IMG/VR virus record: IMGVR_UViG_3300009776_000631
DNA length: 23,789 nucleotides
Strand: one strand, 5' to 3'
Origin: a virus
Positions 18,199-19,697 of the stretch are shown one piece after another (the first letter of the stretch is position 1; each line of letters opens with the position of its first letter). The position numbers and the translations under genes are program-made. A model generated the notes under the pieces. That model saw nothing but the letters and a program-made list of their open reading frames with translations. It did no database searches and was not told the origin of the DNA.

Positions 18199-19290
18199 CT
18201 ATTTAGGCTTTCCTACCTTCTCCCGGATCACGTCGTCCCGGACAGTCTTCAGCGTCTCGATATCCCGCAGGGCCTCAAGGGAGAGCGGCCTGCTGCAGCG
18301 CGAACAGAACCCGGACCCTGCAGCATTCTGGAACCCGCACCGCGGGCACTTGACCGGCTTCAGTGGGTCGGCCGGCTGATCTTCCGGGTTCAGGTCCACC
18401 CCCTCGATCTGCAGGATCTTGTTGTCGATATCCCGGCCGGACAGGTGCACGTAGACTGCTGCCATGCCGGACCGCTCGCTCCACCCGGCATACTTCCGGA
18501 GCTCCGATTCAGTGAGTTGCTTGCCTCGCTGGGTCAGTCTGCCGTGCCGGAAGGCATGGGGGTTCGTCTTCTTCTGCACCCCCGCAAGGTCCCGCAGGCG
18601 CTTGAAGAGGTTCTGGACGGTACGTTCATCTAGGCGTGAGTAGGTTGTGGTCCCCCGTTTCCGCGAGGTGACGAAAAGGGGAACGTCGGCGTCATGCTTC
18701 AGCGGATGGAACTTATCGATCCAAGTCTGGAGATCCGGGGCGGCGCTCACGATCCGGATCTGCCGCTGGCCGGTCTTGCCGGTGACGGTCAGGACCGCAC
18801 CGTACTGGTCAAACTTGACATGCCCGACATTACAGCCCAGGAGCTCGTTCAGCCGGGCGGCGCTGTCCCAGTACGTGGCAACGATCGCACGGTCCCGCTG
18901 GGTCTCGCAGACATCCAGGAGCTTTGCCACGTTCCCGGCCTGCAGGACCTTCTCGGGCGGGATCTCGTGCCGGGGCCTCGCTGGCTTGAAGGCGACGATC
19001 TTCTTCTCCGGCAGGAGCCAGCGATAGAAAAGTTCCAGCTCCTGGACATCATGGAACGCGGTGACCGGGGATTTTGTCTTCTTCCGGTGCAGGAAATAGT
19101 CCTCGATATCGTGCGGCTGCACGGCCTTCGCGTCCTGGAATTTATACCAGATCAGGAACGTATAGATTTTCCAGAGCTTGTTCTGGATTGTCAGTGCGCT
19201 CAGGTTCCGGAGCTCCAGCGATCGCAGGTAGCCCGATAAATATTCACGATTTTTATAATCAAGGTTTTTGAATTTGTGCCACACTTCCAT
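18199..19290 (-). CDS. Tyrosine integrase with C-terminal zinc ribbon
   Basis: Catalytic DSAARLNE (R), GKTGQR (K), HAFRH (HxxR), AGWS (W), AVYVH (Y); CPRC...CSRC tail; likely ATG 19290 with a TATA-like box at about 19313-19319. Confidence 0.95.
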   Translation of the reverse strand: MEVWHKFKNLDYKNREYLSGYLRSLELRNLSALTIQNKLWKIYTFLIWYKFQDAKAVQPHDIEDYFLHRKKTKSPVTAFHDVQELELFYRWLLPEKKIVAFKPARPRHEIPPEKVLQAGNVAKLLDVCETQRDRAIVATYWDSAARLNELLGCNVGHVKFDQYGAVLTVTGKTGQRQIRIVSAAPDLQTWIDKFHPLKHDADVPLFVTSRKRGTTTYSRLDERTVQNLFKRLRDLAGVQKKTNPHAFRHGRLTQRGKQLTESELRKYAGWSERSGMAAVYVHLSGRDIDNKILQIEGVDLNPEDQPADPLKPVKCPRCGFQNAAGSGFCSRCSRPLSLEALRDIETLKTVRDDVIREKVGKPK

Positions 19291-19336
19291 GATCTTTTGT
19301 TGGTGCAGGCCGTATATTACGCCATTGTCCTGTACA

Positions 19337-19349
19337 AGGTTGAGGGCCT
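19337..19349 (+). repeat. att-core-like 13-bp direct repeat of the tRNA anticodon stem-loop (AGGTTGAGGGCCT)
   Basis: Identical to 19424-19436 inside tRNA-Leu; AAGG-TTGAGGG-CCTT is a 7-bp spacer flanked by inverted repeats. Confidence 0.8.
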
Positions 19350-19392
19350 TCGACGAATGACTGGCACAATATCGTGGCGCAAGTGCAGATGG

Positions 19393-19477
19393 GCGAGGGT
19401 TGCCAAGACAGGTCAAAGGCGTCAGGTTGAGGGCCTGATCTCGTAGGAGTTCGAGGGTTCAAATCCCTTCCCTCGCA
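19393..19477 (+). tRNA. trnL: tRNA-Leu (anticodon GAG), complete, no encoded CCA
   Basis: Acceptor GCGAGGG/CCCTCGC plus discriminator A; D-arm GCCAAGACAGGTCAAAGGC; anticodon arm TCAGG-TTGAGGG-CCTGA; long variable arm; T-arm GAGGG-TTCAAAT-CCCTT. Confidence 0.95.
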
Positions 19478-19556
19478 TACTCATTTTTGATAATCTATAT
19501 CTCCATTTCTGGGTAAGGTTTATATTCCGAGAGGTTTTAGGTTAACCTAACAAATC

Positions 19557-19697
19557 ATGACCCGCTTCCATATCCGGGCCCGCGTCCGGAAAGCCCGGAA
19601 GGAGATTGACGAGAAAGCGCAGGCCGTCCTCTCCCATTACCCCGTGGCGGATCCCGGGGACCGGCGCCGGGCCGGTATGTGCATGTGCGTGCGGTAG
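19557..19697 (+). CDS. 46-aa basic peptide (not in ORF track)
   Basis: MTRFHIRARVRKARKEIDEKAQAVLSHYPVADPGDRRRAGMCMCVR; TTTATAT box at 19519-19525 upstream. Confidence 0.5.
   Translation: MTRFHIRARVRKARKEIDEKAQAVLSHYPVADPGDRRRAGMCMCVR

Follow-up and report, generated by a model that had tools for sequence, protein, structure and literature searches.

Probable replacement of a host tRNA-Leu(GAG) gene by an adjacent cargo tRNA upon integration of a tailed archaeal virus

Comparison with integrated relatives indicates that the attP of the virus studied here is very probably a short core at 19335-19350, and not the tRNA gene next to it; upon integration the host tRNA-Leu(GAG) gene would be split and replaced by the complete cargo tRNA that the virus carries adjacent to the core. 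Positions are those of the window, the whole stretch of 23,789 nucleotides that was analysed, from IMG/VR virus record IMGVR_UViG_3300009776_000631. The features of the module are:

18199-19290, - strand: tyrosine integrase gene, 363 aa (Pfam PF00589 and PF13495 plus a zinc ribbon; PHROG integrase)
19291-19334, no strand assigned: predicted P arm of attP, which aligns with the P arms kept beside the integrase at attR of integrated relatives
19335-19350, + strand: predicted attP common core, 16 nt, on the crossover column of the relatives and identical at 16/16 positions to the candidate host tRNA arm
19351-19392, + strand: predicted P' arm and spacer, from the core to the cargo tRNA, homologous to the P' arms at attL of the relatives (CCTT-S-GAC-RR-GG motif)
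19393-19477, + strand: complete cargo tRNA-Leu(GAG) (ARAGORN; Rfam tRNA 48.9 bits, full length)

The window belongs to a viral genome of 39.3 kb that is complete and not integrated, and that is represented by a single contig of 39,271 bp with a 127-bp direct terminal repeat. A tail completion gene on a matching contig in a JGI sample identifies a tailed archaeal virus; a methanogen of the Methanoregulaceae is its probable host. The stretch from the integrase through the core to the tRNA is base-for-base identical in five independent assemblies, which excludes the misassembly that a first-pass annotation of this DNA had raised as a concern. A related virus (L085) has an integrase, core, spacer and complete tRNA-Leu(GAG) in like order and is syntenic with the window virus on both sides of the module; it too is therefore a free form. 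Just 3' of the cargo tRNA lies a 46-codon ORF (19557-19697) that is called as a gene in other assemblies and is without a family match. Comparison to PHROGs gained little annotation beyond the integrase.

The sequence AGGTTGAGGGCCT occurs on the + strand at 19337-19349 and at 19424-19436, and no other exact copy is present in the 39,271-bp genome. The duplication reported in the first-pass annotation is thus real, with the second copy forming the anticodon arm of the tRNA, and the call of a complete tRNA-Leu(GAG) is likewise borne out by ARAGORN and Rfam. For one given 13-mer the chance expectation of a second exact copy is about 7e-4 in 2 x 23.8 kb, and repetition of the layout in the second virus rules out chance. 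The 7-nt overlap (19340-19346) has the sequence of the anticodon loop and lies between CAAGG and CCTT. Behind the upstream copy, which reads AAGG-loop-CCTT, comes a 43-nt spacer (19350-19392) that, as had been noted earlier, is unlike the 3' half of a tRNA. The best TATA match in this spacer scores 4 of 8 on a crude consensus score that is not discriminating, as host promoters and cargo spacers have means of 5.0 and 5.05 of 8, respectively. An ATCCCTC motif is found in the spacers of some relatives; a decayed tRNA 3' half was considered for the spacer and is not claimed.

The integrase has a SAM-like N-terminal domain, a catalytic domain (Phage_integrase) and a C-terminal zinc ribbon, as identified by Pfam matches. 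Its ATG is at 19290 on the - strand, 46 nt from the upstream core, and the tRNA is divergent from it. Homologues of about 60% identity are found in Methanoregula/Methanoregulaceae and of 43-45% identity in Methanosarcinales. A query with the single integrase protein returned no close relatives in genome or viral contigs; an alignment-based integrase scan was needed, and gave chromosomal loci and one viral contig. A TATA-like box at 19313-19319 in the P arm, whose centre is about 26 nt before the integrase ATG, is kept in the relatives and from its spacing may be the integrase promoter. This arrangement suggests that the integrase mRNA would be leaderless, with the promoter abutting the core, so that integrase bound at attP could control its own gene. 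An imperfect inverted repeat flanks the core asymmetrically, with CATTGTC at 19323-19329 in the P arm and GACGAATG at 19352-19359 in the P' arm, and these arms are possible extra integrase-binding sites. At the same places the relatives have CCTTTGT and ACAAGG, and the two arms co-vary.

Eight integrated relatives were identified, seven in Methanoregulaceae genomes and one in the cultured Methanohalophilus halophilus, and in all eight the overlap of attB with a host tRNA gene is directly visible. At the integrase-side end the order is integrase, a P arm of about 45 nt with a TATA-like box, tRNA-Leu loop, host 3' half and host DNA. At the far end a host promoter region is followed by a tRNA-Leu 5' half extending to the loop, a few stem bases, a spacer, and a complete tRNA-Leu of the same anticodon; the spacer is 45-96 nt across the relatives and 45-67 nt in the Methanoregulaceae loci read. 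Neither junction rebuilds a tRNA, attL having the orphan 5' half and then the spacer and attR the orphan 3' half, and the common cores of 11-16 nt are too short for rebuilding a functional one. Both junctions were read in the Methanoregulaceae loci L005, L006, L013, L008, L010 and G005, as well as in L137/L138 of M. halophilus (CP017921.1). The arrangement predicted in the first-pass annotation for an integrated form (host 5' half, core, spacer, full tRNA) was found in every relative with both ends readable, and the survey of related integrases that it had called for revealed that the cassette layout is kept across relatives of 44-60% integrase identity in two orders. Element sizes are about 7.7 kb for L005, L006 and L013, about 11 kb for L008, 14.4 kb for L010, and about 34 kb, with a 96-nt spacer, in the closed M. 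halophilus genome. The small, plasmid-like L005 codes for a D5-type primase-helicase and for a serine resolvase. The integrase-side junction is alike in Methanococcoides burtonii.

Two further properties of these loci bear on the mechanism. At the L009 junction the P arm of an L085-type attP is followed by the loop and then by the host 3' stem, which places strand exchange inside the 7-nt loop. The anticodon-stem strands of the orphan 5' and 3' halves are mutually complementary and unlike the stem of the complete tRNA between them, and it follows that a host gene was split and a separate full gene brought in. Targets in the relatives are Leu(GAG), Leu(CAG) and Leu(UAG); the cargo anticodon is always that of the target and always co-varies with the attP overlap.

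The origin of the cargo is touched upon by its flanking sequences. The 30-40 nt after the cargo tRNA are alike in L005, L006, L013 and L010 despite different anticodons, and the cargo 3' flank resembles the host 3' flank at the attR side of L006 (9840-9900). These similarities hint that a tRNA-Leu locus of the Methanoregulaceae was the source from which cargo tRNA and flank were captured. M. halophilus has a further isolated tRNA-Leu 3' half (G402:C1:1384000-1384038), possibly the junction of another element. In addition, the end of Archaeoglobus profundus pleomorphic provirus 1 (BK065154.1, 14645-14696) is a tRNA-Leu 3' half that starts in the anticodon loop. It is 86.5% identical to window positions 19427-19478 and was the only INPHARED match; the A. 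profundus provirus appears to target the same tRNA sublocation.

We aligned eight attP regions, reconstructed for the integrated elements and direct for the window and L085. The upstream core of the window falls on the crossover column, with P and P' arms kept on either side: a GCC-TTGT motif accompanies the TATA-like box in the P arm, and the CCTT-S-GAC-RR-GG motif marks the P' arm. On this alignment the upstream core is positionally orthologous to the crossover of the eight integrated relatives.

Among 401 sampled genomes of the order Methanomicrobiales, the best match to the viral tRNA is the tRNA-Leu(GAG) of G378, a Methanoregulaceae MAG by the annotation of a neighbouring protein. In the viral tRNA the anticodon arm spans 19422-19438, with the loop at 19427-19433, the anticodon at 19429-19431 and a TCAGG/CCTGA stem. 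The comparison with a host tRNA-Leu(GAG) suggested in the first-pass annotation shows the two genes to be the same save for four positions, which together are two compensatory pair changes in the outer part of the anticodon stem (CAAGG/CCTTG in G378 versus TCAGG/CCTGA in the virus). The upstream core has 16 consecutive nt in common with the G378 anticodon arm and 13 with the virus's own tRNA; the viral and G378 arms match without interruption over 11 nt. The G378-type tRNA-Leu(GAG) gene is thus a candidate attB target. As a close integrase homologue is absent from G378, its locus would be an empty site, and the target locus was intact in 10 of 10 metagenome contigs of the candidate host, found via the host neighbour gene P0121. 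The alignment with the relatives' crossover and the 16-nt match to the candidate target both support the earlier proposal that the upstream core is the real attP, and do so by comparison, not from the virus's own junctions.

Host and virus also have 43 nt in common; this stretch begins at the 3' border of the anticodon stem and runs 2 nt beyond the tRNA 3' end. Several contigs end in this region: one virus contig (L002) breaks exactly 2 nt past the tRNA 3' end (19479), another (L004) breaks within the common stretch (19468), and a candidate-host contig (L184) stops 1 nt before its end. These breaks of virus and candidate host, in different samples, fit circumstantially with a 43-nt stretch common to both in the assembly graph.

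We searched for the junctions of this virus as well. Exact scans found neither its P' arm in JGI metagenome contigs nor its predicted attL in metagenome contigs, and neither its P arm nor its predicted attR in IMG/VR; the P' arm pattern, at up to 3 mismatches, had no match in 11 genomes of the candidate host's genus, with the reservation that records very near the window may be missing from the material scanned. The integrated form foreseen in the first-pass annotation is thus present in the relatives, but contig scans did not find the virus's own attL and attR. Since identity to the nearest integrase relatives reaches only about 60%, the reading of the window virus is one by homology. By this homology the virus would itself integrate, and its cargo tRNA would be both expressed and needed.

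To gauge prevalence, we searched for two copies of the tRNA-Leu D-arm motif 70-100 nt apart. The tandem half-plus-full layout was present in 19 of the 401 sampled Methanomicrobiales genomes, and a reversed control pattern gave 0 matches. At least three P' arm families occur among the genomes with the tandem layout, and other integrase lineages probably use the half-plus-full strategy as well. One P' arm family, seen in six genomes (L157-L162, e.g. G057:C1:1272742-1272841), has a 48-nt spacer and a TATA-like CCTATATC before a Leu(UAG) cargo; in a further family (L156 and L163) the junction comes directly after the loop.

The cargo anticodon stem is unlike the split host stem in 17-18 of the 19 genomes. 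Pair 27:43 is compensatorily changed in all of the eight fully reconstructed cargo/target pairs and pair 28:42 is changed as well in five; in four of the eight, anticodon-stem pair changes are the only differences across 85 nt. Such compensatory changes may serve to keep the integrase off the cargo tRNA. The protection is not absolute, since in L164 (G086:C1:1979049-1979163) the half that was split already has a cargo-type stem. At L174 (G253:C1:503998-504107) the orphan 5' half is heavily decayed and the "cargo" has a host-typical stem. Together, L174 and L164 suggest that cargo genes may become resident tRNA genes and be targeted anew, which would amount to tRNA gene turnover.

A closed chromosome (G001, OY969564.1) carries two elements. 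In its tRNA census the genes for Leu(CAA), Leu(UAA) and Leu(UAG) are native; Leu(GAG) and Leu(CAG) are represented by intact genes only in the form of the two cargo genes, besides one decayed cargo-like relic. This census offers indirect support for the view that viability of the lysogen would require the cargo tRNA. The relic (L139, G001:C1:187357-187441) is a decayed tRNA-Leu(GAG) beside a tRNA-Ser, with a cargo-type anticodon stem, a broken T stem and an Rfam score of 39 bits. It looks like the remains of an older element's cargo.

Other explanations of the duplicated core were weighed against these data. The attP could be canonical, with recombination through the anticodon arm or 3' part of the viral tRNA itself, a chimeric tRNA being rebuilt and the upstream 13-mer acting as an accessory integrase-binding or regulatory site. 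The 43-nt identity of host and viral tRNAs has a length typical of canonical common cores, assemblies break at its boundary, and a regulatory role is conceivable for a core beside the TATA-like box of the integrase. The breaks, however, are equally explained by plain sharing of sequence between host and cargo tRNAs; the P and P' arms flank the upstream core and not the tRNA, and the candidate host arm fits the upstream core (16 nt) better than it fits the viral tRNA arm (11 nt uninterrupted). None of the integrated relatives shows a site of this kind: each has its junction at the core next to the integrase, with the full tRNA at the far end behind the orphan 5' half. We consider a canonical attP very unlikely. 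Slightly less likely again is the switchable or captured state that the first-pass annotation had offered as its own alternative, in which recombination between the cores would delete 87 bp to give a canonical attP (P arm, core, tRNA 3' half), the two forms alternating or the host tRNA having been recently captured. This deletion finds no support in the five independent assemblies, all of which have both cores and the 87 bp, and it would take out the conserved P' arm. The cores are indeed direct repeats that have the 7-nt overlap and 3 nt on each side in common, and the host-like cargo 3' flanks of several relatives make a past capture plausible. Nevertheless, a layout kept at 44-60% integrase identity in two orders is old and stable, not transient, and the differences between cargo and target stems in 17-18 of the 19 genomes are the opposite of what frequent core-core exchange would produce.

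An integrase gene that is intact and identical in 15 contigs is difficult to reconcile with the least likely of the readings considered, that the upstream core is what is left of an older, now dead site, that no integration takes place now, and that the tRNA serves only translation during infection. The scans did not find a lysogen of the window virus, and many viruses carry tRNAs for reasons of codon usage, as such a reading would have it. Yet the core is 16/16 identical to the tRNA arm of a living host, the P and P' motifs are conserved, and in the relatives the cargo anticodon never departs from the attP overlap.

With the upstream core as attP, integration can be envisaged as follows. The tyrosine integrase would exchange strands in the 7-nt sequence that forms the anticodon loop of the host tRNA-Leu(GAG) gene. 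As attP has only about 16 nt in common with the target and lacks a tRNA 3' half, the host gene would be split and not rebuilt, with its 5' half staying at one provirus end and its 3' half beside the integrase at the other. The loss would be covered by the complete viral tRNA-Leu(GAG), 43 nt behind the core, which after integration would come to lie immediately after the host tRNA promoter and the orphan 5' half. It could be transcribed from the host promoter through the orphan half and spacer, or a weak promoter belonging to the cargo itself could drive it. If the element excised precisely, the host gene would be whole again; were it lost in any other way, the cell would be left without a source of that tRNA.

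More tentatively, and with considerably less confidence than we place in the location of attP, the unit of about 1.5 kb comprising integrase, attP and tRNA may be a portable "tRNA hostage" cassette. Such a cassette would split a single-copy isoacceptor gene and supply the sole replacement, leaving the host dependent unless excision is precise. Its cargo would be deliberately recoded at 27:43 and 28:42 so that the integrase passes it over, it would retarget among Leu isoacceptors by joint change of overlap and cargo anticodon, and its cargo genes would over time turn resident, driving tRNA turnover and the scattering of tRNA halves in methanogens. If true, this could be one way in which split or interrupted tRNA genes of archaea arise in nature.

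As judged from the integrated relatives, replacement-tRNA integration appears to be common in methanogens. Several practical points follow for work on these genomes. Mapping of proviruses has to allow for direct repeats of only 11-16 nt, with orphan 5' halves marking one end, and in tRNA annotation a host's sole copy of an isoacceptor may be viral. Dependence of the host would favour retention of the element and hence its stability. The compact cassette of integrase, attP and tRNA could be developed as an integration vector for methanogens, as has been proposed for mycobacteria. A testable system is available in Methanohalophilus halophilus, which is cultured and has a closed genome with a 34-kb element of the cassette design.

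tRNA-dependent lysogeny has been established experimentally for the actinobacteriophages Fionnbharth/K4, cluster L, Gaia and others (Guerrero-Bustamante and Hatfull 2024, PMC10865867). Their common cores measure 8-17 bp, and lysogens are viable only with a phage tRNA of the same isotype (PMC10865867). The attributes of this class are found in the archaeal elements: an integrase beside attP, a short core, and a complete cargo tRNA of the same isotype and anticodon. As in the actinobacteriophages (PMC10865867), a tyrosine integrase acts on a host tRNA gene through a core too short to rebuild it (8-17 bp in the phages and 11-16 bp in the archaeal elements); the actinobacteriophages also have related integrases whose cores are long and canonical (PMC10865867). 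Unlike these phages, the present elements have archaeal hosts, from two orders, and an integrase with a SAM-like N-terminus and a zinc ribbon in place of a lambda-type arm-binding domain. The actinobacteriophage cargo tRNA lies elsewhere in the genome and has its own proven promoter, whereas here it lies 43-96 nt behind the crossover, following the host promoter and the orphan 5' half. The archaeal cargo often equals the target save for the anticodon-stem changes, while the Fionnbharth tRNA is not close to that of its host. The archaeal cassette, known here from sequences alone, also differs in being carried by viruses and by small plasmid-like elements.

Canonical integration at the anticodon loop (the Williams 2002 class; SSV1, PMC8371274) likewise involves exchange within the 7-nt loop, with the anticodon stem providing dyad symmetry. 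A canonical attP, however, carries the 3' part of the tRNA and rebuilds the gene, whereas here nothing is rebuilt and 5' and 3' fragments are left. In SSV-type elements attP lies inside the integrase gene (PMC8371274); here it is outside the integrase ORF, and the integrase genes are intact in the integrated relatives. The elements also differ from pTN3-like ones with a tRNA 5' half, as the P arm is unlike tRNA 5' sequence and the tRNA is not rebuilt. According to a review of archaeal tyrosine recombinases, the target tRNA is restored in all archaeal integrations described (PMC8371274). Contrary to this and textbook accounts, a widespread family of methanogen elements brings a spare tRNA instead of restoring its target.

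In the literature on methanogen proviruses we did not find the half-plus-full cassette layout described. The precedents found in the searchable literature are bacterial ones (PMC10865867; Lj965, PMC3714127) and one loosely similar archaeal locus (PMC3293823). In the Lactobacillus johnsonii prophage Lj965 the tRNA is reported not to be rebuilt at the junction, and cognate tRNA genes are carried (PMC10865867; PMC3714127); going by these descriptions, it resembles the archaeal cassette in both respects but is bacterial. At a tRNA-Thr locus of Caldiarchaeum subterraneum, a complete tRNA is preceded by a 5' fragment of the same tRNA identity, with a recombinase-bearing insert between the two (Sugahara et al. 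2012, PMC3293823), an arrangement interpreted as tRNA disruption driven by a mobile element (PMC3293823). With a length of 1.8 kb, that element separates the fragment from the full gene, and no cassette of short-core attP and cargo, or complementation logic, is described for it (PMC3293823). What appears to be new beyond these precedents is the close linkage in cis between cargo tRNA and crossover, the presence of this arrangement on a tailed virus as well as on small plasmid-like elements, and the co-variation of overlap and cargo anticodon together with the compensatory stem changes.
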